A stretch of 62,171 nt of DNA, filler included, from Stramenopiles sp. TOSAG23-2 (taxonomy: Eukaryota), in NCBI GenBank assembly GCA_900128395.1. It is 3 parts of 3 records of this genome, joined end to end, with 100 filler letters (N's around TTAATTAATTAA, not from the genome) between each part and the next. Parts side by side here need not be neighbours in the genome. Positions count along the whole stretch, not along the records: positions 1 to 20,700 come from LT649552.1; 2 more parts are not named here. One strand, 5' to 3'. Made by a program: the position numbers and the translations under genes. The notes beneath the pieces are model-generated. The model was not told the DNA's origin, did not search any database, and worked only from the letters and a program-made list of their open reading frames with translations. How positions within the stretch are numbered: the first letter of the stretch is position 1; each line of letters begins with the position of its first letter. This document shows positions 3,046-58,149 of the stretch, in pieces.

Positions 3046-4389
3046 ATGTCAAAAGAAAAAGGTACGGAAATTACAATTAATGTATCAAATATAATATCAG
3101 GCCTTGCTTTTGGTGTTGGTGTTGGTGTAGCAGCTGGTGTAGCATATTATTTTTTAAACGGCAGTAAAAGTTCACAGAATACAGGAAAACGAAACAAGGT
3201 AGACCTTGATGATGATGATGATATTCCATATTCGTCTAGAAGAGAATTTTCACCAAAAAGACCAACTAAATCTAAAAGGCCAGCTACACAAACTTTTGCC
3301 AGGGGAAGTGTAGATGAAACTAGTGAACCTTGGGATTCATGGGATAAACGAAAGTCAGTCACTGTACGCGTGCCAGCGACAAGTGCTAATTTAGGTTCTG
3401 GTTTTGATACCATTGGCATTGCGCTTGATATGTGGAGTGAAATTACTGTGGAAAGGGCAGATGAATTTTCAATGACATGCGAAGGTGAAGGGGCAGAGCA
3501 TTTACAAAGTTTAAACGAAAAAAATTTAGTATGTGTTGGTGTCAAAACAGCTTTTGAATATGTTGGTGAGGAACTTCCACCATTGAAATATACTTGCAGA
3601 AATCGTATACCATTTGGTAAGGGTTTGGGTTCTAGTTCAGCTGCAATAGTTGGTGGCTTGATAGCAGGGCTTGCGTTGTGTGGCAAGGAACTAAAAGTTT
3701 TTGGTGAAGATTCATTATATTCTGGGGGTGTAACTGCAGAGCCTGAAGAATTGCTTCAATTAGCATGTAAAATTGAGGGCCATCCTGATAATGTCGCGCC
3801 TGCGATTTATGGTGGGATTCAATTAGGCATTAAAATGCGAAATGGGAAATGGCGTTCAAGTCGTGTAAATTGCCCAGCAGATTTACAGATGGTTGCATAC
3901 ATTCCAAATGTTGTCGGCGTTACAGCGGAATTAAGAAAAGTATTGAAATCGAAAATTCCACGACAAGATGCTATTTTTAATATTGGCAGAGTTGCATTTT
4001 TAGTAAACTCTTTAAGCCAAAACAAATTGTATGACCTTAGATATGGAACAGAAGATGTATTGCATCAACCGCCACGCGCAAGTGTTTATCCTTATTTATA
4101 TCCATTAATGAATGCTGCATTAAGTGCTGGAGCACATGCGGTATATTTGAGTGGTGCTGGACCTACTGTATTAGCAATCACATCAGGTGCCGCTGGCGAT
4201 ACATTTACGCAGCATGGTTCGGAAAGAATGGAGCGTGCCATTGCCGATGCGATGATATTAGCTGGGCAAAAGCATTGCAGTAAACCAGGCAATGTGTATA
4301 TTACTCGACCAGTCATGCAAGGTGCATATATTGTAAAGGCAGATCCGCCATTTTCCAAAGGTGTTGTTCGATACCCAGGTTTTGTGTAG
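3046..4389 (+). CDS. thrB: Homoserine kinase (GHMP kinase) with N-terminal transmembrane extension
   Basis: VRVPATSANLGSGFD, PFGKGLGSSSAA, EGHPDNVAPAIYGG and LSGAGPT motifs. Confidence 0.92.
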   Translation: MSKEKGTEITINVSNIISGLAFGVGVGVAAGVAYYFLNGSKSSQNTGKRNKVDLDDDDDIPYSSRREFSPKRPTKSKRPATQTFARGSVDETSEPWDSWDKRKSVTVRVPATSANLGSGFDTIGIALDMWSEITVERADEFSMTCEGEGAEHLQSLNEKNLVCVGVKTAFEYVGEELPPLKYTCRNRIPFGKGLGSSSAAIVGGLIAGLALCGKELKVFGEDSLYSGGVTAEPEELLQLACKIEGHPDNVAPAIYGGIQLGIKMRNGKWRSSRVNCPADLQMVAYIPNVVGVTAELRKVLKSKIPRQDAIFNIGRVAFLVNSLSQNKLYDLRYGTEDVLHQPPRASVYPYLYPLMNAALSAGAHAVYLSGAGPTVLAITSGAAGDTFTQHGSERMERAIADAMILAGQKHCSKPGNVYITRPVMQGAYIVKADPPFSKGVVRYPGFV

Positions 4390-4577
4390 AGAAAAAGAAG
4401 AGAATGGAAAGTATAAAACTTTGAATTAAAAAGAGCTTATTTTCTTAAATTTTCAATAATCTCAACCCGAGATATATGATGATATTTACATGTAATGATA
4501 TATACGTATAAAAATAAATTCTCTTTATTTTTATATTTTTATTAATATACTCGTATATATACTCGTACGAATCATAG

Positions 4578-4615
4578 AGAGAAGTAAAATTATTATAACC
4601 TTAGATTTTAACCAA
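4578..4615 (+). repeat. Dispersed repeat family, 3'-end-only copy D
   Basis: gagaagtaaaattattataaccttagattttaaccaa matches the 3' end of copies A-C. Confidence 0.75.
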
Positions 4616-4753
4616 GATAAAAAATATCATATATGATATATATATATACATGTATGAAAATATATTTTTACTACGTAAAATGTACGCGTATTTTAATAAT
4701 TTTACATACTCGTATTAAAATATACATCACGCCAATACACACTCTTTGTTCAA

Positions 4754-6522
4754 TTATTTTTGTCTATCTTGATCCACAATCAATCGTCTTAAAATTTTCC
4801 CAGATGCTGTTTTTGGTATTGATTCAGCAAAGACCACTCCACCGCGTAATTTTTTATGTGGAGCAACCTTTGAAGCTACGTACTCTTGTACCTCCCTTTC
4901 ACTCATATTTGAATTTTCCGCTTTCACGACATATGCACGTGGTATTTCACCAGCTTCATCATCCTCAACTGGTATAACAGTTGCATCGATAATATCATTA
5001 TGTGTCATTAAAACATCTTCCAATTCAGCTGGTGCTACTTGAAAACCCTTATATTTAATCAATTCCTTCAAACGATCAAGAATGTAAAAATATCCATCTG
5101 AATCGTATTTTGCCAAATCACCAGTTAAAAGCCATTCGCCATCGGGGGTAAAACTTTCTTTTGTTTTTTCAGGTTGATTTATATAACCTTGCATAACTTG
5201 TGGACCACGAATGCATAACTCACCTTCCATTTCTGCAGGTAAATCTTCCCCAGTATCAACAGAAATAATTTTCCCTTCAGTATTAGCAAGTAATGGTCCA
5301 ATGGAACCGGCTTTAATAATATCATCTGGATCACAAGTTCCAACCGGTGACAACTCGGACATACCCCACGCTTGCTTAATTTTACAATTTAAGCGTTTGC
5401 AACATTCTTCCGTCAATTCATCTTTTAATGTTGCTGCCGCTGACATTAGCATTTTCAACGAGGACATGTCGTACTTGTCAACTAATTCATTTTTTGCTAA
5501 TGCCAATACAATTGGTGGTACAATATGCGAACGTACTGCAGTCCCTTCTTTACTATGTTCGTCGATGATTTCAAGATAACGTTGCAAATCAAATTGTTTC
5601 ATCGTCACCAAGGTACGACCTTGCCATGCTTGTTGCAACAAGGATACGGAAAACCCATATATATGCCACATGGGTAATGGAGATAATGTGATTGTGTCTA
5701 AATTTTGCTCTTTGTTTTCAGCTTCATCAATTTGTAGCAAATTTACACATACATTTTCATGCGTCAACACTACACCTTTTGGCAAACCAGTAGTACCAGA
5801 TGAAAATGGTAAAAGTAATGTATCTTTAGGAGTCACGCTAATAGTCTCTAATTGTGATTTATCAAGAAGAGATGATGTTCGTAGTTTTTCAAAATCGACA
5901 ATATTGCTATCGTTGTTGCTGGCGGCATCAGCGAATGTATTTTTCTCACCTGAACCCATCATTATCATATGTTCACAATTGCCATATTTTAATGCAGCAC
6001 TTTCAGCTTCAAAACGAAAATCTTCATGATAAATATACGCTTTTGAACTTGAAGCTTTTAATTGATGTAATAGTTCATCACATTTATATAATGGATTCAT
6101 CGGTGTAACAACCGCACCGATCCCTTTGTTCCAAATATTAGATTACCTTTAGTGTTAGAGAAGATAGGTTAATAAAGTATATTTCGGCATTTTTACTTAC
6201 GTCCTGCAGCACATATACAAGTCAAAAAATCTACGTGGTTAGGCGACTGCAGGGAAATTGAATCGCCATGCTTAAGACCCATGGCAATAAACTGTGCGGC
6301 TAGCGTATCAATATCATTCTTATAGTCGCCAAATGTTCGTGTGTCACCAGTAATCCCATCCACACAAGCAATCTTGCTTTCAATACTTGGAACATTGGGC
6401 CATTTAGATGAAATAAATTCAGCTAAAGTAAGCACACTTGGCATTTTTATATCTTTATACGGGGATTTTACGACATAACTTGAGAAAAACCTTTGTCGTT
6501 TTTTTGTTAATAGGTTTAACAT
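4754..6522 (-). CDS. 4-coumarate:CoA ligase/luciferase-like acyl-CoA synthetase, 2 exons (6522-6201, 6123-4754)
   Basis: LPFSSGTTGLPKGV AMP-binding motif, GELCIRGPQVMQGY, DRLKELIKYKGFQVAPAELE, PKTASGKILRR. Removing intron 6124-6200 (GTAAGT...AAG) gives in-frame AAGR-IGAVVTPMNP. N-terminus is mitochondrial-presequence-like; no C-terminal PTS1. Confidence 0.9.
6124..6200 (-). other. Spliceosomal intron, 77 nt
   Basis: GTAAGT donor, TCTCTAACA branch motif, AAG acceptor; splicing joins the two ORF halves in frame. Confidence 0.85.
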
Positions 6523-6960
6523 GGTGTTTGTAGTTTTTTTTCTGACTTGTAATATTCAAGCAATAATATATGACAGCTGTATTAACTTTATTGTACACAG
6601 CCATTTCGTATAACAATATATATACACAAAGATTTGTAAAAAATAGCAAAAAATATCCGAAAAAAAAAATATATTTTATTTTTTCTATGATGGTATACCT
6701 GGTAAATGGTGCGATTTTTTGTTGCCATAATTCGTTCTCTATAAGAATAGTACAGTAGACGACTATAGCAACCTGCACAATAGTACCTGGTAGTAACAGG
6801 TAATAATAAATAAAAAATAATATAGCTGGATATGCACATATATGTGCATATATAGCTATAATAAAATATTGATAATTCTAATATTAATAATGACAACATA
6901 AACAACTAAAAATAATACAATAAAGAAGAAACAAAACGATTATTTAACATACATTGAAGC

Positions 6961-8376
6961 ATGGCAAATCATAATAGATCCAATTTTCACCGCCATTTAA
7001 CCAATCGAGCAAGTGGTTTATCTCGTTTGACTAATTTTAAAAATTATTTTAGAAGAAAATATGGTGGTGGTGTCAATTTATCATTAGATGAAAATATAGA
7101 TATAAAAACTAATCACCATAATGGAAATACAACTTGCCTAGACCTCGAAAGTATTGAAGGACGCTATTTATTATCTGGCGCCGTAGATGGCCATGTTTCG
7201 ATTTATGATTTGGCATCTGTTGATAATAATATCAATAATAGCAGTAGCAATGGCATTTCTAGTAATTCAATAAAAAATGTCGAACCGCTTGTTTTCTCCA
7301 AGGGATCGTTAACAAATCCTCTTCCAGCACCTCATAAACATATGATATCATCAGTGCAATGGTATCCAGTGGATACTGGACTATTTATAAGTTCTTGTAT
7401 GGGTGGTCTTATCAATGTATGGGATACAAATAATATGGAAATAGTTGCCCGGTTCCGCATTGGTCGTAGAATAAATGCATCTCCTATGTCAAGAATTTCC
7501 AAACATCATAATTTAATTGCGGTTGGATGTGATGAAAATACAATTCGTTTATGCGACTTACGAACTGGTAGCAACACGCATGTGTTGCAAGGCCATCGGG
7601 AGGAAGTTTCATCATTAAATTGGTCACCAGTTGATGAATATGTTGTTGCTAGTGGAAGCAATGATTGTACCGTACGTTTATGGGACATACGATCAAGTGG
7701 ATTGAAAGCTTGTACTTATATATTTGATATGTATGATACGAAAGGTACTCGAAACCGTAAAATTGGAAATCAACCAATTGGTGGTGGTACGTCATCAAAC
7801 CAACACAAGGAAGATCATCTAGATAATAATAATAATAATAATGATAATAATAATAATACTAACAATGCCAGCAGCAGCAGCAGCAGTAGCAGCAAGAAAA
7901 GACAATATGCTAATAATGTAAACCAATTTCAAAATAATAATAGAAATAGAAAGAAAAATAAAAGTAACAATTTCGCGCATAAACGTTCTGTAACCTCTCA
8001 TCCAAGTCCTGTAAAATCAGTTCAATTTACACCAGATGGATTGTTCTTGGTTTCATGTAGTTCTAATAATATAACAACGTGGGACGCCTATAAAGGTATT
8101 AATCAATTAATTCATTACCCAAATTTCAAAGCAGCTTATTGTGGTAAAGCAAGTCCATTGAATATATTGCAAATCGGTTCATCTTACGATGCATATATAG
8201 TCACACCTATAGACAAGACTGGTGAAATTTTCTTATATAAAATGCACGATGGAACAATATGTTCAAGATTGAAAGGTCATTATGAAACTGTAACTGATAT
8301 AGTTATACGTGATGTTGGTAGTAACATTCAATTATTTAGTGCAGCTTTAGATGGAAATATATTAGCTTGGAGCTAA
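6961..8376 (+). CDS. ERCC8: DNA excision repair WD40 protein ERCC8/CSA
   Basis: LDLESIEGRYLLSGAVDG, SVQWYPVDTGLF, RLCDLRTGSNTHVLQGH, VRLWDIR and terminal DGNILAW match the CSA/Rad28 pattern. Confidence 0.88.
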   Translation: MANHNRSNFHRHLTNRASGLSRLTNFKNYFRRKYGGGVNLSLDENIDIKTNHHNGNTTCLDLESIEGRYLLSGAVDGHVSIYDLASVDNNINNSSSNGISSNSIKNVEPLVFSKGSLTNPLPAPHKHMISSVQWYPVDTGLFISSCMGGLINVWDTNNMEIVARFRIGRRINASPMSRISKHHNLIAVGCDENTIRLCDLRTGSNTHVLQGHREEVSSLNWSPVDEYVVASGSNDCTVRLWDIRSSGLKACTYIFDMYDTKGTRNRKIGNQPIGGGTSSNQHKEDHLDNNNNNNDNNNNTNNASSSSSSSSKKRQYANNVNQFQNNNRNRKKNKSNNFAHKRSVTSHPSPVKSVQFTPDGLFLVSCSSNNITTWDAYKGINQLIHYPNFKAAYCGKASPLNILQIGSSYDAYIVTPIDKTGEIFLYKMHDGTICSRLKGHYETVTDIVIRDVGSNIQLFSAALDGNILAWS

Positions 8377-8531
8377 AAAATATTCTTGTATTTTATATAA
8401 ATATATATATATCTCATTTTTATATAATATATTTTCTTTTAATAAAATAAAAAGAAGTACCGAATGCGTACGCGTTTTTGTTTTTTTTACTTTTAATATA
8501 AAGCAAAATAATACGAGTATGCATATGAGTT

Positions 8532-9212
8532 ATGCATATATATATTACTTCAGATGGGAAGAATTTACCTCCAGACGTGCAGACTAAACAACAAAACAAC
8601 ACCGGCATTCTATCAAATTATTATGAGCAGCATGATATTAGGAATAATGACAATAACTTTTTTGATGAAAAGGCCAAACCAGACGTTCTTTATTACGTAA
8701 ACACAAACACCAAGAATGCGCAACAGAATGAGATTCATCATGTGAATACTGTATGCTGCAAAAAACTATTATCCAAAGAGGATATCATTCAAAATCATAG
8801 TCACCGGGCGATCCCTTTAAAATTTAACCAGGCTAGGGACGATGATGTATACAATGATAAATCAACTTTGAAAACAGTTCCTTTTGTAGTACACACTTCA
8901 GATGGGAAGAATTTACCTCCAGACGTGCAGACTAACCAACAAAACATCAGGGAGCAAAAACCCAAGATTTATCACTTGTCAACGTTACTAACTCAATAAT
9001 TTTGTGCATTGCAACCACAACCTATTGTCACCCAAGACAATGGTTGCTATGAATCCACCCCTGGGGAATTCAAAACCACCAAACTTTGGAAAACCTATGG
9101 ACTATTCACACCACTTTCATCGAGCGTGTTATACTGAATTCAGACCTACTTGTGCTTATGGAGTATTAGCTTGCGGTGGCGCATGAGTCAGGAGAGCTTT
9201 ATTATAGTAGGA
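8532..9212 (+). pseudogene. ORF or decayed ORF of unknown function with an internal 52-bp direct repeat
   Basis: 155-aa ORF 8532-8999. The same frame stays open for ~45 codons after the TAA and runs into the dispersed repeat. TSDGKNLPPDVQT occurs twice. Confidence 0.35.
8547..8946 (+). repeat. 52-bp direct repeat pair (8547-8598 and 8895-8946), one mismatch
   Basis: acttcagatgggaagaatttacctccagacgtgcagactaa(a/c)caacaaaaca, 348 bp apart. Confidence 0.9.
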
Positions 9213-9300
9213 TAGCATATTATGCTTGCGATTGAGTATTGAGCATATTACTTTAACACGATAAGTGTAAAATTATTATAACTTAGATTTTAACCAATAT
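9144..9300 (+). repeat. Dispersed ~155-bp repeat family, copy A
   Basis: Colinear with 18152-18312 and the reverse complement of 57986-58149 (gagtattag...gagcttta...gtaggata...cttgcgattgagtatt...gagcatattactt...aagtgtaaaat...agattttaacca). Confidence 0.9.
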
Positions 9301-9558
9301 TATATATATAATATATACGGTATAATTTATGGCCACACGCTCCTGTATACAATTTATATTAATTTAATATTAATATTATGTCATTATTAAAATGATATAA
9401 CCTGCGAGGAACAATATGTCACTGAATGGCCAAACCGCATGTGGAGGTGGATTCCTTTTTCGATGATCTGTTTCTTTTTTAGTGGATCAGTTTGTGTGGA
9501 TGCGATTCAATTGAATGAATTATTCTTTTATTATTGTTGGGTTAAAAAATAACCGACA

Positions 9559-10053
9559 TCACAAAAATAGAATATCTTTAGGTAATTTACATTTATAGGC
9601 AATCCATACGCAATCAAAATTGGCATTGCTCTTTTTATTTAATTCATTCGACACAAAATGAATCCGCTTCGAGGGAATCACCAGCTGGAGATTATCATCG
9701 CCTCTAAATAATTCAATAAAATACTGCGTATTGATGCGAGGGATAGGAAGCAATACCATAAATGGCTTTCCTACCTGCTTGAGCCTCCGTAAGATGGATT
9801 TGGCTTTCGAGAATGGAGGATTGGTTAAAATCATATCGTAAGCCACAGAATGATCGAAGAAATCGATTTCTTTATCATGAATGATTTTGTTCTTAGGGAA
9901 TACCTCTTTTAAATGCTCCTTACACTTCCCATCGTAATAAAAAGGATCAAATAGAGTGATTTTGGTGGGGATAAGATGTCGAATGGATTTCCACGCAGAT
10001 TTTGGAGTCCCCCAGCAGTCATTTTGTTTAAAATGTTCGTTCGTATAGTTCAT
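9559..10053 (-). CDS. Small N6-adenine DNA methyltransferase of phage/giant-virus/Polinton-like-virus type
   Basis: 164 aa, intronless. DCWGTP, LFDPFYYDG (SAM-binding motif I-like), DFF, catalytic motif IV TNPPFSK, KPFMVLLP, IPSKRIHF, FDCVW. No low-complexity host-type linkers. Confidence 0.8.
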   Translation of the reverse strand: MNYTNEHFKQNDCWGTPKSAWKSIRHLIPTKITLFDPFYYDGKCKEHLKEVFPKNKIIHDKEIDFFDHSVAYDMILTNPPFSKAKSILRRLKQVGKPFMVLLPIPRINTQYFIELFRGDDNLQLVIPSKRIHFVSNELNKKSNANFDCVWIAYKCKLPKDILFL

Positions 10054-10445
10054 TTAAATGAGAAGATATCTATTTATATAGTGTCCTTTTTATACTTTCG
10101 CAGTTTACCGTTGAACGGATTTCCATTGAATACGATGGTTTTGAACGGGATTTAATAGCATTACAACACAAAAGGAAGTTCCAATTGGGAGGAGTATTCC
10201 ATACAGTCGTTATTATCCTTTTGTAATGACTACTTTTTCAGGGCATTACCAAATCTAAGAGATACCCTCTCTAACTTTACCAATTTCAATTTCACTTACA
10301 CGGCGTCCATTCAATGGATTGGGTGCCCATGTACGATTTACATAATTGTCACATCTCCCGAAATCTATTCAATGGATATCTTATGAGCTCCCAGAGTAAG
10401 GTTCACAATTGATAAGAAACTTATCTATAACCATAGTTGGCGCCA

Positions 10446-13400
10446 TTACTGCATCTCAATCTGTTTCAATCTCTCCTCTTCCATCTTTTCCAATGGATTC
10501 TGTTGCCATTTTCGATCTTCTTTATCATCAGCTTCACCACGAAATAAACATGAACCAAACTTTTTCCTAATTGTACCCACAATCACATCTGCTTTTTCAC
10601 GCCATTTCGCCTTTGCAAATACATATGCAAGTCCAGCAACACCAAATAAATTACAAATACCAACAACATATGCTGCACATTCACACCAAAAGCCACCTTC
10701 ATCAGCACATGTGGGATCCGTTTGTAGCATACCGCCAACCCAAAATGTAAAAAATGCCAATGATAATGACCCAAGTTCTAAATGCAACAGTTTCTTGGAC
10801 AAGAACGGTTGAAAATACGATGTTAAAAATAATAACAATGCCAATACAAATAAAACGCAATATATTTGTTGACTCTCTACGACAAACGTTCCAATTGCAA
10901 TAATCGCTACTTTACGCATAATCACGGTGACTTCCCAGTAATAATAACCGTCATTGTATCCATCATATAACATACCATACTTTAAACGTGTCGCTGGCAA
11001 CTCACGATTGGTTTTATGTAAAATATACAATCCATAACTTGGTAAACCAACAATATATAGTAACATAATCATACCAGCAGTACAAAACATCACCAAATGT
11101 TGATCTTTCCAACATGTAATTTCAGGATCTACTTTTAAATATTGTTCCTCCCCAATCATTTCCGTGCAACTAATTAATTTTGCAAACAACTGAATAAAGG
11201 ATGGAAACATTAAATACCACAACAAGACAATTGCAGAAATGATTTCCTCTTTATTTCCACGAACAAATTTAATACATGTATATGTTAATGGAACCATGAG
11301 TAATGGCAATAAAAGTATACAGATAGATCGAAGAACAAATACATCCCAAATGGACATGGTGTTCAATACACAATCTAATGAGAAGAATGCTTTAGACACA
11401 CTTGTAACAACATCTTGTGCAGCAAACAATTGATGAAAGGTTTGGTTCCATGGTACATCCATGTTTCGTGCCAGTAAAACGGTTTGTAAATAACTAAGGG
11501 CAATTTTCTTCACACCATCACTAAAATGGACTTTCCGCTCTTTAAATACGGTAATTTTAACAAGTACAATTGTACCAATTGTCGCAACGACAATACCAAC
11601 AAGAAAAACCACTATATTCAATTCAGAACTGCATTTCACACATCGACCAACACTTGAACCGCGAGCATGATTTACATCACAGGATGCACATAAACGACTA
11701 TTGTTTTTATATCCATCTGCACAAGATGCAATATTTCTACCTTTTCTATTGACATCTTCAAATCGTTTAATCGCATTATTTTTTGCACCTAAACATGCCT
11801 GTACACGAAGGCACGGGTAATACTTGGTTTTATTGTATTGCCAATACCCAAATTTTGCGTAAATGTTGGATTTTGTCACTGCGCCGACACATGATGCACC
11901 AACAGGACATGGCTGACACTTCCATGTTTTCATTTTAGATCCACTCGCATCTAAATACAATTCATCTGTATTGCAATCATTTGTTGTTTTCCATTTCATA
12001 TGTTTCGTCGTTGTTTTACTTATTGTTTTATCTCCATATTGAATATGCGCTTGTAGATGATATACTTGGTTTATGATAGGTATCGTTGGTTTTAATGAAC
12101 TTGATGTTGTTGTACTACCGTTAACAATAAATATGCTATCTTCTTTCCCTGTATCTACATTCATTGGTATGATAACAATATGGTCTATGGTTTTATTGAT
12201 AATTGGTACCGTCCATGTTAAGAATAACATTCCATCGATTGCTTCGACAGAGGTTATAGTTGGACCATTACCTTCTTCGTTTGCCGTTACGCATGCGATA
12301 TTATTGCTATCAGGGACTTGTTTACTTGGACATGGGATGCAGTTTGTTTGTCCTTCCATGTCTGTATGCAATAAACCAGTGCATGGTTCACATGTTCCGT
12401 CGATACCCGCTCTTCCCTTTGTACAATTGGTACATTGTACACTTCCTTTCACAAATGTAGTCTTGCCAGGTGCACATGTGTTGCAAGTGGAATTCCCTGA
12501 ATATGATATTGAACCGTCATTAAATGCACCTATCGGACAAGCTTCGAATGAATTGCAACCTTTTTTGTTACTTGTATCGTGACAATTGGATGGATACATA
12601 CCAGGTGGAACATCAATACACACAATGCTATTGTTTGAATATTTTCCAGCGTCACATAATTTGCACGAAGTTGCAATTGTATTTATTGGTTGATATCGTC
12701 CAGGCGAACATGTATCACATGAAGCACTACCATATTTATTCGTTGCTTTCCCAGCTAAACATGGTAAACATGATGGATATGAATCATTTTCACCTAAATA
12801 TTTACCTGGATGGCATGGTGAGCATTGGATTCCTTGCTTCTTATTTGGTTTGTTGGCGCAGTCAATGCCATAATTGGGGTAAGAGGGAATGGAATCTTGG
12901 CATATTTTTTCTGTACATTGACTTAGCGTTCCTTTTATTGAATTTTGTAAAATGCTAAAGGTAGTGTTGATAATGATAATTGTTGGTTCTGTCGCTATGT
13001 CCTTGCCGCCATGACTGGCAGTATTATCACTAAAATGACTATTTACTATAGTTACATCGCCGCTACCGATATATATTCCACCACCACTAGGACCAGTATT
13101 GTGTGAAATGTTACAGCTTGTTAAGTGCACTTCGCCATCCTTGATATACAAACCACCACCCTCTACAGCATTATTGTTTGAAATAGTACAGCTTGTTAAG
13201 TGCACGTTACCATTATTGATACGCAAACCACCACCTCGACTTAGTTGATCATTCAACACTTGCGTTGCTCTATTACCTGATATTGTACAGCTTGTTAAGT
13301 GCACTTTGCCATTATTGATATCATCGATATACAAACCACCACCTTGATAAGCGGTATTGCTTAAAATGTTACAGCTTGTTAAGTGCACTTCGCCATTAAG

Positions 13401-14315
13401 GATAGACAAACCACCACCATAACCAGCACCAGCGATATTGCTTGAAATAGTACAGCTTGTTAATTGCACTTTGATATACATACCACCGTCGATATACAAA
13501 CCACCACCAGGACCTTGAGCATAATTGCTTAAAATGTTACAGCTTGTTAATTGCACTTTGCCACTATTGATATACAAACCACCACCCGTCGTAGCCCATC
13601 CATTCCTGATCGTAACATTCGTTAATGTTAAATTACTAGGCGCATTTTGCCCCACAAAAAAAACGCGATGACCAGGACAACTACTAGCACATCCTGGTGT
13701 CCCTCCACCATCAATTGCAGGTCGTACACCATCTACACCAACAATACCAGTAATATCCAACACATCACCATTATTAACAATAATAGTACCTGATGCAGAC
13801 AGATCCACATCATTGGATAATATATACGTACCAGATGTCTGTTCATTCCATTCACCTACCAATGCTCTACCAAGATGCAATCGCCGTTTTTCAATAGGAT
13901 ACTCACCGTCTTCTTCCTTTTTCATTCCATTATGAACGAGCTTTTTCAATACAACCGCCTTTTTATTTGAATCACCATTTACATTATTCTCTTTTTTATG
14001 ATTCCATTTAAAAAAGTGTTTCTTTACTTTATTGCCATCATAACGTTGATGGTATACCTTGTCGTTTGTTCTATCAAAATCGTTTTCTTTTGCGTTTTCC
14101 ATCTCTCCAATTATATTTAAATCATTGAAAGAAGAACAACTTGGATATTTTCTATGAAACCATTGTGATAAATATTGATGATTTCGTAAAAATCCATCTG
14201 TCGTTAAGGAATGTATTACATCTATATGCATGTTACACATTGTATCTATTGCTTTATTCACATGAACGAACGATATGAAAAGGAGGATGGGTAAGATATT
14301 CCTATATGTCCTCAT
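10446..14315 (-). CDS. Surface receptor/adhesin: signal peptide, parallel beta-helix (POMP-like GGGLYI) repeats, Cys-rich GCC2/GCC3 (ephrin-receptor-like) repeats, FN3-like region, C-terminal multi-pass TM domain
   Basis: Hydrophobic N-terminus; 7 GGG[LI]xI...LTSCxIxxNxA units; repeated CxxCxxGxY motifs; several hydrophobic helices after residue ~900 including YGMLYDGY...YYWE...RK. Confidence 0.85.
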   Translation of the reverse strand: MRTYRNILPILLFISFVHVNKAIDTMCNMHIDVIHSLTTDGFLRNHQYLSQWFHRKYPSCSSFNDLNIIGEMENAKENDFDRTNDKVYHQRYDGNKVKKHFFKWNHKKENNVNGDSNKKAVVLKKLVHNGMKKEEDGEYPIEKRRLHLGRALVGEWNEQTSGTYILSNDVDLSASGTIIVNNGDVLDITGIVGVDGVRPAIDGGGTPGCASSCPGHRVFFVGQNAPSNLTLTNVTIRNGWATTGGGLYINSGKVQLTSCNILSNYAQGPGGGLYIDGGMYIKVQLTSCTISSNIAGAGYGGGLSILNGEVHLTSCNILSNTAYQGGGLYIDDINNGKVHLTSCTISGNRATQVLNDQLSRGGGLRINNGNVHLTSCTISNNNAVEGGGLYIKDGEVHLTSCNISHNTGPSGGGIYIGSGDVTIVNSHFSDNTASHGGKDIATEPTIIIINTTFSILQNSIKGTLSQCTEKICQDSIPSYPNYGIDCANKPNKKQGIQCSPCHPGKYLGENDSYPSCLPCLAGKATNKYGSASCDTCSPGRYQPINTIATSCKLCDAGKYSNNSIVCIDVPPGMYPSNCHDTSNKKGCNSFEACPIGAFNDGSISYSGNSTCNTCAPGKTTFVKGSVQCTNCTKGRAGIDGTCEPCTGLLHTDMEGQTNCIPCPSKQVPDSNNIACVTANEEGNGPTITSVEAIDGMLFLTWTVPIINKTIDHIVIIPMNVDTGKEDSIFIVNGSTTTSSSLKPTIPIINQVYHLQAHIQYGDKTISKTTTKHMKWKTTNDCNTDELYLDASGSKMKTWKCQPCPVGASCVGAVTKSNIYAKFGYWQYNKTKYYPCLRVQACLGAKNNAIKRFEDVNRKGRNIASCADGYKNNSRLCASCDVNHARGSSVGRCVKCSSELNIVVFLVGIVVATIGTIVLVKITVFKERKVHFSDGVKKIALSYLQTVLLARNMDVPWNQTFHQLFAAQDVVTSVSKAFFSLDCVLNTMSIWDVFVLRSICILLLPLLMVPLTYTCIKFVRGNKEEIISAIVLLWYLMFPSFIQLFAKLISCTEMIGEEQYLKVDPEITCWKDQHLVMFCTAGMIMLLYIVGLPSYGLYILHKTNRELPATRLKYGMLYDGYNDGYYYWEVTVIMRKVAIIAIGTFVVESQQIYCVLFVLALLLFLTSYFQPFLSKKLLHLELGSLSLAFFTFWVGGMLQTDPTCADEGGFWCECAAYVVGICNLFGVAGLAYVFAKAKWREKADVIVGTIRKKFGSCLFRGEADDKEDRKWQQNPLEKMEEERLKQIEMQ
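13020..13590 (-). repeat. In-frame coding tandem repeats (75-99 nt period) of the beta-helix region
   Basis: Core acagcttgttaa(g/t)tgcac at 13113, 13188, 13287, 13371, 13452 and 13539; all spacings are multiples of 3. Confidence 0.9.
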
Positions 14316-18151: not shown

Positions 18152-18312
18152 ACCTACTCATGCTTGTAGAGTATTAGTTTGCAGAGGTGCATTAGAGCTT
18201 TACTATAGTAGGATACGAAGAATATATTATTCTTGCGATTGAGTATTTGGAGCATATTACTTAGCACGGGAAGTGTAAAATTATTGTTCGTATATAACTT
18301 AGATTTTAACCA
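18152..18312 (+). repeat. Dispersed ~155-bp repeat family, copy B
   Basis: Same blocks as copies A and C, with small indels. Confidence 0.9.
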
Positions 18313-18417
18313 CATATCAATTAAATTATATATTCGTACATAATATGAGTAAGAGAAAAACACATATATTTATGTATGTGTGTGTGTGTATAATATACGA
18401 GAAGTATGATATATGTA

Positions 18418-57906: not shown

Positions 57907-57985
57907 GGGAGAGGATTTTAATAACCACTCATCTGTAATAAATTACATTGTAATGTTAGTTTTTTAGAAAAACTTATATTTTATG

Positions 57986-58149
57986 ATATAATATTGGTTA
58001 AAATCTACAAGTTATAATATTTTTACACTTCTCGCGTGTTAAAGTAATATGCTCAATACTCAATCGCAAGAATAATATGTTATCCTACACTACTCGTATA
58101 GTAAAGCTCTAATGCACCTCTGCAAACTAATACTCTACAAGCACAAGTA
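57986..58149 (-). repeat. Dispersed ~155-bp repeat family, copy C (on a different contig)
   Basis: Reverse complement reads tacttgtgcttgtagagtattagtttgcagaggtgcattagagctttactata...cttgcgattgagtattgagcatattactttaacacg...agattttaaccaatat. Confidence 0.9.

Follow-up and report, generated by a model that had tools for sequence, protein, structure and literature searches.

The DNA considered here, called the window throughout, is a stretch of 62,171 nucleotides (filler between its three joined parts included) from the assembly GCA_900128395.1 of Stramenopiles sp. TOSAG23-2, and the subject of this study is a small gene on its minus strand, at positions 9559-10053, within the part taken from LT649552.1. 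The gene is an intact open reading frame (ORF) of 164 amino acids with an ATG start, and it is predicted to encode a DNA methyltransferase. It is solitary between ordinary nuclear genes, and it belongs to a tight clade of about 80%-identical copies and broken copies from marine metagenomes and from a second eukaryotic contig (L081). Judging from the genes that accompany them, those relatives of the clade whose context is known are carried by virophages, by virophage/Polinton-like elements and by giant viruses. An earlier inspection of this DNA, here called the sequence-only reading, had proposed that the gene is a captured or domesticated viral methyltransferase, and the analysis described below follows up that proposal and weighs it against other explanations.

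The Methyltransferase Gene and Its Surroundings

The ORF list and the translation bear out the description of an intact, compact frame with DxWxTP, DPF..DG and NPPFS motifs, and a stop codon stands in frame immediately 5' of its ATG. When the 2069-bp spacer in which the gene lies (8377-10445) was shuffled 2000 times, the longest ORF per shuffle had a median of 59 and a maximum of 148 amino acids, and because none of the shuffles reached 164 amino acids the frame is not a chance ORF. The gene also lacks poly-Asn/Ser linkers, as had been claimed, but this absence is only weakly informative, because runs of at least five N, S or Q residues, present in six of 19 host ORFs, are missing from the other 13 as well. 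The ORF occurs as a single copy in the window.

The spacer is bounded on one side by a WD40 gene that ends at 8376 and on the other by a gene for a 1289-aa protein, which has its stop at 10446 and lies on the same strand as the methyltransferase ORF, 393 bp upstream of it. The possibility that the ORF is an exon of this upstream gene was ruled out, as the 1289-aa gene has its own stop and all close copies of the methyltransferase begin with MNYTNE. Neighbouring genes belong to the zf-CW, GHMP kinase, AMP-binding enzyme, WD40, photolyase and RBBP4-like histone chaperone families, and further neighbours encode a fused small-plus-large carbamoyl-phosphate synthase, an Arg5,6-like acetylglutamate kinase/reductase-type fusion and a PDCD2-like protein. 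The GC content of the window is 28-39%. The host DNA is nuclear, eukaryotic, AT-rich and intron-poor, and the host is called a marine protist because the sequencing runs that match the stretch are marine or seawater metagenomes and metatranscriptomes.

The sequence-only reading had seen no capsid, integrase, packaging ATPase or nuclease gene nearby, and broader searches agree with it. A Pfam scan of 19 long ORFs of the window returned cellular families or no match, with none of these four functions among them, and when 1463 ORFs from the 80 viral loci described below were compared by tblastn with the whole window, every one of the 94 matches fell on the methyltransferase ORF. No viral hallmark gene (capsid, packaging ATPase, integrase or polymerase) is contiguous with the methyltransferase in the window. 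Apart from this ORF, the 2-kb spacer contains a broken repeat-family ORF without a Pfam match and a short repeat, and no other ORF longer than 60 amino acids is listed in it. A restriction-modification (R-M) system was rejected as an identity for the locus, since neither the ORF list nor Pfam places an endonuclease or specificity subunit beside the methyltransferase in the spacer. The ORF is not flanked by long inverted repeats (the longest arms measure 21 nt at 76% match), and no tRNA or Rfam match was found in the window. The short repeat is of host type; it lies 240 bp from the stop codon of the methyltransferase and is present at three other spacers of the window.

Protein Family and Predicted Fold

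The protein matches the Pfam family Dam (PF05869) with 32.1 bits against a cut-off of 28.1, its residues 9-151 lying on profile positions 7-141 of 169, and its seven close copies also bear a precomputed PF05869 match. It further matches PHROG 799 (phrog_799, "DNA methyltransferase") at 2.3e-20 and the PADLOC type II MTase profile at 1.4e-6. The Pfam and PHROG assignments agree with the earlier description of an NPPF-type amino-methyltransferase of the phage or virus kind, and not of the MT-A70 kind; with a limit of E 10 the Pfam search listed three families, and MT-A70 is not one of them, although the HMMER filters drop most matches above about 0.1. With the 164-aa protein as query, NCBIfam gave no match and a PDB sequence search gave nothing significant, and a PDB profile search with 30 family members matched solely the catalytic-motif stretch of DpnA (E 0.007).

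Conservation in the family alignment (A1) is concentrated in the three motifs, the coordinates of which are given in Table 1. In DCWGTP, T16 is invariant and P17 nearly so. In DPFYYDG, which comes after strand E33-35 of the structural model, P37, F38 and G42 are nearly invariant; from general knowledge of the fold we take this to be motif I. In NPPFS, N78, P79 and P80 are nearly invariant, and the PDB profile search places this motif on (D/N)PPY of DpnA. Motif I (DPFYYDG) thus labelled comes before motif IV (NPPF) in the ORF.

An AlphaFold2 (AF2) model built from the family alignment has a mean pLDDT of 90.1, a pTM of 0.85 and alternating strand-helix units, and on the strength of this model the protein is confidently predicted to fold as an amino-methyltransferase Rossmann domain. 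The top Foldseek matches in the PDB include the N6-adenine DNA methyltransferases PacII, M.TaqI and M.BseCI and type I M subunits, with DNA and RNA enzymes alike reaching a template-modelling score (TM) of about 0.5 on the query. Among viral models (BFVD), small phage DNA methyltransferases come out best, at TM 0.6-0.73. Amino-methyltransferase chemistry, most likely at N6 of adenine, is well supported by the profile matches and the predicted structure, and we infer from the genomic company of the family that DNA would be the substrate.

An exhaustive search gathers 1154 cluster representatives of the family at E up to 0.001, nearly all of them 150-250 amino acids long, and only three of the 150 best representatives are longer than 300. 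The family is abundant and uncharacterised, and sequence searches reached solved structures at the catalytic-motif stretch only.

Table 1. Features of the methyltransferase gene and its immediate flanks (positions in the window)
Feature	Position	Strand	Basis
Methyltransferase coding sequence, stop codon included	9559..10053	-	ORF list, PF05869, phrog_799, AF2 model
DCWGTP motif, N-terminal, D12-P17	10003-10020	-	Translation and family alignment A1
DPFYYDG motif, D36-G42, read as S-adenosylmethionine (SAM)-binding motif I loop	9928-9948	-	Alignment A1 and model
NPPFS motif, N78-S82, catalytic motif IV	9808-9822	-	Alignment A1 and DpnA profile match
Upstream leader, first ~50 nt conserved in another copy	10054..10216	-	RNA-library contig and P0012
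3' flank common to the decayed L081 copy	9466..9558	-	blastn and alignment A2; homology stops at 9466

Relatives and Their Carriers

A word-indexed protein search returned 13 relatives, of which seven are full-length at 79-84% identity (E-values 2.4e-82 to 9.2e-90) and one stands at 40% identity, and all those whose records were looked up are metagenomic. The N-terminal extension of the relative P0012 resembles the window frame upstream of the ORF. No reverse transcriptase (RT), RNase H (RH) or recombinase domain was detected in 10 of the longer relatives. In a phage collection, only 76 of 50,697 records match, 27 of them across 80% or more of the query. Thermus phage YS40_Isch is the best match, with 39.6% identity over 93% of the query. 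A single-protein search of IMG/VR (2.9 million contigs) yielded no close copy, and a search of IMG/VR with the family alignment yielded 88 relatives, 80 of which were kept (28-44% identity). In the protein, phage and IMG/VR searches, the best matches are not vertically inherited eukaryotic RNA or protein methyltransferases; matches of that kind are what the sequence-only reading had named as speaking against it.

The 80 viral loci were classed by Pfam-confirmed seed proteins, extended by iterative hidden Markov model searches. Sputnik-type virophage capsid genes are found at 12 loci, the major capsid protein (MCP) and/or family-B DNA polymerase (PolB) of nucleocytoplasmic large DNA viruses (NCLDV) at 26, and a D5-like helicase only at seven, and 35 loci are unclassified. 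At L001-L003 the methyltransferase stands beside Sputnik-type capsid genes. The unclassified locus L023 carries a poxvirus-A32-type packaging ATPase, a tyrosine integrase, a collagen-repeat protein and a GH5 cellulase, and two others, L027 and L012, carry a D5-type primase and a lipase, respectively.

Some further observations concern the carriers themselves. In the virophage contigs L001-L003 the methyltransferase is the next gene after those for the penton and major capsid proteins and shares their strand; at L003 it occupies 9971-10489, with the penton gene at 6773-7975 and the major capsid gene at 8071-9822. The 80 loci hold 94 methyltransferase ORF matches, 14 loci having two paralogous copies (L054-L060, L063, L071, L010, L012, L027, L034 and L046); in virophage loci with two copies, these fall in separate clades of the 151-row tree described below. 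The 372-aa relative P0014 is matched by the query in two stretches and looks like a tandem duplication. The unclassified, methyltransferase-bearing contig L018 also encodes a TET-associated glycosyltransferase (651-2003) and a protein-primed PolB (4015-7593), a content that suggests further DNA base modification in an element resembling Polinton-like viruses (PLVs). The methyltransferase of L004 adjoins a giant-virus PolB gene (3123-6821); residues 847-909 of this polymerase match LAGLIDADG and may represent an intein or a homing endonuclease insert.

Phylogenetic Position

The trees were computed without labelled bacterial homologues and without DIRS sequences. In a quick tree of 151 rows, the window gene and its seven close copies form a clade (support 100 in the SH-like approximate likelihood-ratio test, SH-aLRT) on a long stem, inside a radiation of virus and metagenome sequences. 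In a quick tree of 104 rows, this host clade groups with L023 and five metagenome proteins (SH-aLRT 98). A careful tree was then inferred under LG+G4 from 57 rows, leaving out 47 of the 104. It separates the phages from the rest with support of 100/97 and recovers the host clade at 100/99; the host clade joins L023 and the five metagenome proteins at 99/93, and this group is nested above L072 and L077 at 95/85. The giant-virus copies form a clade of their own (94/96), apart from that of the window gene. In addition, a stretch of the form "EVF...IIH", recognized by eye in alignment A1, is common to the host clade and to L023 and its kin. Going by these placements, an origin from a small virus of eukaryotes is the best-supported reading, although it is not proven.

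Codon Use, a Second Copy and Selection

The codon use of the methyltransferase gene is foreign to the host. The ORF has a GC content at third codon positions (GC3) of 0.412 and a value of 0.495 on a measure akin to the codon adaptation index (CAI-like), whereas the 19 host ORFs have GC3 of 0.185-0.284 and CAI-like values of 0.64-0.76.

The second eukaryotic contig, L081, was found as one locus by a single-protein metagenome scan. Its neighbouring genes differ from those in the window, its ORFs are less dense, and its mitochondrial-carrier gene is seemingly interrupted. Its methyltransferase copy is 5'-truncated at about codon 28, contains several indels and is frameshifted. Nucleotide identity between the two copies is 84% over window 9466-9972, with window positions 9506-9543 missing from L081 in alignment A2, and blastn revealed no similarity between L081 and the window outside 9466-9972.

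A comparison of synonymous (dS) and non-synonymous (dN) change, which had been suggested as a check, was made for this pair. Over 133 gap-free codons, dS is 0.44, dN is 0.076 and dN/dS is 0.17, from 27 synonymous differences in 81 sites and 23 non-synonymous differences in 318 sites (Fisher p 1e-8), and dN/dS is as low as 0.03 over the final 57 codons. GC3 is 0.42 in both the window and the L081 copies, as against 0.25-0.33 in the genes of L081 itself, and the methyltransferase of L023 has a GC3 of 0.37 in an element of 40% GC. Among the eight intact proteins of the clade, 25% of the family-conserved columns vary, compared with 47% of the least conserved (Spearman rho -0.21, p 0.008). The dN/dS ratio, the pattern of substitutions and GC3 are therefore evidence against long neutral decay. 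We infer that the copies diverged under selection in a compositional setting unlike that of the host, and then arrived separately.

Positions 1-436 of L081 also contain a tandem array, with a peptide of ~53 amino acids repeated in two frames.

RNA Cover and Linkage to the Host Flanks

For window 7000-12000, contigs were aligned from four runs of four studies, two of DNA and two of polyA/oligo-dT RNA (X2, X4, X5 and X16), bins without cover carrying no evidential weight. The sequence-only reading had called for RNA data, and polyA RNA contigs of two studies do cover the ORF, at 9590-9868 and 9985-10216 in X5 and at 9647-10059 in X16. Several of these contigs have 0-5 differences from the window, and the X5 contig at 9985-10216 has none. 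RNA depth over the ORF is 0.5-5, like that of the flanking genes, whereas the spacer bins 8336-8502 and 10340-10506 have 0-0.03 in the RNA runs and are covered in a DNA run. The RNA cover is consistent with transcription of the methyltransferase ORF. The gene probably makes an active enzyme, because it is present in polyA RNA libraries and has kept all its catalytic motifs.

Linkage of the gene to its host flanks, another check that had been proposed, has some support in the upstream direction, where overlapping pieces from different runs reach into the 1289-aa gene. Contigs from different runs overlap at 9898-10276, and X2 depth is about 7-9 in every bin of 10173-10673, the end of which lies inside that gene. 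Depth over the ORF is not above that of the host flanks.

Origin and Possible Role

We hold with moderate confidence that the locus is an intact minimal SAM-dependent amino-methyltransferase gene of family PF05869, alone in protist nuclear DNA, which arrived by way of a small integrase-bearing virus and is probably still active. Arrival would have been by integration of a small integrase-bearing virus of the virophage or PLV type, and probably took place more than once in the host group, because purifying selection acted while the copies diverged, their GC3 stayed at a non-host 0.42, and the loci that they occupy are unrelated. Of the integrated virus, only the methyltransferase would be left. 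In the predicted enzyme, the DPF..G loop would hold SAM, and the target base would be flipped into the NPPF pocket, where an adenine within a short DNA motif would receive the methyl group on its exocyclic N6. Without a partner nuclease, such an enzyme would work as an orphan modification enzyme.

Several results weigh against this reading. The 151-row tree gives the host clade no supported sister and does not recover its grouping with L023, and the 57 rows of the careful tree were picked after the 104-row result was known. The approximately unbiased (AU) test does not reject a clade of the host copies with six phage sequences (log-likelihood difference 11.98, p 0.269). The proposal of a captured viral methyltransferase accordingly stands as far as the virophage, PLV and giant-virus relatives, the foreign codon use and the solitary position of the gene carry it, but a phage position is left by the test. 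The stem of the host clade is long (0.52-1.08), and the true donor therefore appears to be unsampled. In the Foldseek comparison, the RNA adenine methyltransferases Dim1/KsgA (rRNA) and TrmM (tRNA) score as high as the DNA enzymes. Five of the 13 database relatives are truncated or diverge in mid-sequence, and conserved residues are changed in some copies, with NIPF in P0006, G42R in P0007 and NLPF in P0008 and L081. The RNA data are contigs, which give neither strand, ends nor level, and read-through transcription from the same-strand gene upstream is possible. Finally, no single listed contig of X2, X4, X5 or X16 crosses both junctions or spans the ORF together with both flanks, and in this respect the link to the host flanks falls short of what had been proposed.

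The retention of an intact ORF with all its motifs, together with a dN/dS of 0.17 against the L081 copy and substitutions that shun conserved columns, might suggest that the gene has been domesticated, that is, selected in the host after capture and used to write N6-methyladenine (m6A) on nuclear DNA as an epigenetic mark or as protection from viral nucleases. The polyA RNA contigs of two studies and the lack of a close copy in IMG/VR would fit as well, and the same runs hold contigs of 93-94% identity for the ORF and of 91-94% for a neighbouring host gene, as expected of sister populations. However, the shared GC3 of the two diverged copies, compared with 0.19-0.28 in the host genes of the window and 0.25-0.33 in those of L081, fits divergence outside the host better, the copies lie at unrelated loci and some are decayed, and purifying selection could date from residence in a virus; domestication is thus a doubtful, though not a negligible, alternative. 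Equally doubtful is a neutral relic, the last gene of a decayed integrated virophage/PLV or of a giant-virus fragment, incidentally transcribed and on its way to becoming a pseudogene. Foreign codon use, the broken L081 copy, the five truncated relatives and a spacer location beside repetitive, partly broken sequence are what such a relic would be expected to display, and its RNA could be read-through from the upstream gene. Yet the ORF is intact at a length that exceeds the longest shuffled ORF, with dN/dS at 0.17 the copies cannot have drifted neutrally for long after they separated, and the survival of one whole gene from random decay would be odd when no other viral remnant is seen in the 2-kb spacer or the window.

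Direct capture from a bacteriophage or a bacterium, such as prey or a symbiont, without eukaryotic viruses, is quite unlikely. The family is a phage family, the match to YS40_Isch comes close to the best viral-contig matches (44%), and the AU test admits a clade of host and phage sequences; nevertheless, in the best tree the phages lie beyond the 100/97 branch and the host clade is nested in eukaryotic-virus sequences (95/85 and 99/93), the "EVF...IIH" stretch ties it to L023 and its kin, and only 27 of the phage records match over most (at least 80%) of the query. It is very improbable that the gene is not host DNA at all, but a co-assembled virus or contaminant misjoined to the protist contig. 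Contigs from independent runs overlap into the upstream gene with even X2 depth, the ORF is not deeper than its flanks, the repeat in the flanking spacer recurs at three other places in the window, and L081 has a family member in another eukaryotic contig with intron-bearing genes. These points outweigh, in our judgement, the fact that the best DNA run, X1 (share 0.89), may be the source sample, the lack of a listed independent contig over both junctions and the presence of a very high-copy, assembly-breaking repeat at 9144-9319. The sequence-only reading had also mentioned transposons, an option that does not fit. That the ORF is left over from a DIRS-type tyrosine-recombinase retrotransposon, as a remnant of its methyltransferase (MT) domain, is scarcely credible, and the idea was rejected: the DIRS MT domain is also detected by PF05869, as stated in PMC3783388, and the L081 copy is 5'-truncated, as retro-copies often are, but the window ORF starts at an ATG of its own, immediately preceded by a stop, and no RT, RH or tyrosine recombinase occurs in ORF 8532-8999 or in the 10 longer relatives, the spacer having no further ORF above 60 amino acids. 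The catalytic motifs NPPF and DPF..G are moreover intact here, whereas the DIRS1 MT domains are described as likely inactive in PMC4738411.

It is conceivable, though unlikely, that the protist lineage keeps a virophage-type orphan methyltransferase for its own purposes, with the m6A mark of the virus, set on nuclear DNA, as a shield or self mark. If so, m6A might shield the host genome from methylation-sensitive nucleases of giant viruses or of virophage R-M systems, or it might alternatively mark self against incoming DNA, and the gene would be a further independent acquisition of a DNA adenine methyltransferase by a eukaryote, this time via a virophage. The locus, in the chromosome of an uncultured marine protist, offers a test case of whether small integrating viruses seed host genomes with DNA-marking enzymes, and of whether such an enzyme then labels host DNA. 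The target motif of this enzyme would also inform a large group of marine virus enzymes.

Comparison with Known Systems

Acquisition of a viral DNA-marking enzyme by a eukaryote is not unprecedented, and the present gene would be a clean case with precedents. No paper on this particular clade was found in the literature, which was not searched by sequence.

According to PMC7805220, a DNA methyltransferase is encoded in over half of 632 PLV and virophage genomes. The virophage and PLV enzymes are of the same family and size as the window gene, with 40-44% identity, and stand beside capsid genes (L001-L003) or on an element with an A32 ATPase and an integrase (L023). The window gene differs in standing by itself in nuclear DNA, unaccompanied by genes for a capsid, ATPase, integrase or polymerase, and in belonging to a long-stem clade that has no close IMG/VR member. 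Giant-virus (Nucleocytoviricota) copies resemble it at 37-42% identity and the same length; they are located near MCP and/or PolB in 26 of the 80 loci, three of which have GVMAG names, but they form a separate clade in the careful tree. Similarity to the phage Dam enzymes of PF05869 and PHROG 799, such as the proteins annotated as DNA methyltransferases in Thermus phage TMA and Listeria phage LP-101, extends to profile matches, motif order, size and 28-40% identity. Unlike these, which fall across the 100/97 branch of the careful tree, the window gene is part of a eukaryotic chromosome and turns up in polyA RNA libraries.

Integrated PLVs of Tetraselmis have an adenine methyltransferase beside a restriction endonuclease, as described in PMC9356565, and in both cases a small integrating virus would have carried a prokaryote-type adenine methyltransferase into the genome of a protist. 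By that description, which is the basis of the comparison, the whole element and the nuclease are present in Tetraselmis, whereas neither is present here. Iyer, Zhang and Aravind (2016; PMC4738411) count at least 13 occasions on which eukaryotes independently acquired N6-adenine methyltransferases, among them a phage-type Dam in Trichomonas, and they also consider the DIRS1 MT domain to be a likely inactive derivative of PCIF1. Phytophthora has active DNA adenine methyltransferases (DAMTs) with DPPY/DPPF motifs, as summarized in PMC6211444. The Trichomonas and Phytophthora enzymes, as they are presented in these accounts, share with the window gene the acquisition of a prokaryotic or viral enzyme by a microbial eukaryote. 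However, the Trichomonas enzyme is described as a member of the E. coli/T4 Dam group fused to a tail-fibre domain, in contrast to an unfused 164-aa PF05869 protein with NPPF, and the Phytophthora DAMTs have DPPY/DPPF and proven activity, in contrast to a predicted enzyme with NPPF. The MT-A70 machinery that writes 6mA in hosts has presumed N6-adenine methylation in common with the window gene, but its motifs are described in PMC4738411 as circularly permuted, whereas motif I precedes motif IV in the window gene.

Other Features of the Window

A repeat of ~175 bp occurs four times in the window, at 9144-9319, 18152-18336 and 57975-58149 (minus strand) and partially at 4584-4634, and every copy lies in a spacer between two convergent ORFs. 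Its summed depth in the metagenome contigs is 2594 in X2 and 12103 in X4, compared with about 4-9 for the flanking genes. The repeat is also deep in both RNA runs, many contigs stop at 9296, and it has no Rfam match. It may be an element resembling short interspersed elements or miniature inverted-repeat transposable elements (SINE/MITE-like), or a shared 3'-end element.

The repeat-family ORF at 8532-9186, which has no Pfam match, belongs to an abundant marine repeat family with 25 relatives, many at 82-98% identity, and clusters of up to 86 members. The window copy is split into 8532-8999 and 9004-9186, whereas other copies (P0194, for example) and RNA contigs are uninterrupted, with 2 extra bases at 8994/8995. 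The ORF contains a 55-nt direct repeat (8547-8601 and 8895-8949), has a non-host-like GC3 of 0.37, and merges at its 3' end into the ~175-bp repeat. The notion that this ORF and the methyltransferase form one mobile unit was rejected, as L081 shares window 9466-9972 alone.

The 1289-aa protein encoded on the minus strand at 10446-14315 contains many "GGGLYI...VHLTSC" repeats, recognized by eye, and a hydrophobic C-terminal region, and its Cys-rich middle part reaches 22.7 bits for Ephrin_rec_like, under the cut-off of 23.1. From these features it looks like a large surface protein. Finally, the AMP-binding enzyme ORF at 4754-6100 (minus strand) begins at profile position 76 of 384, and it likely has an upstream exon and an intron, or another start.

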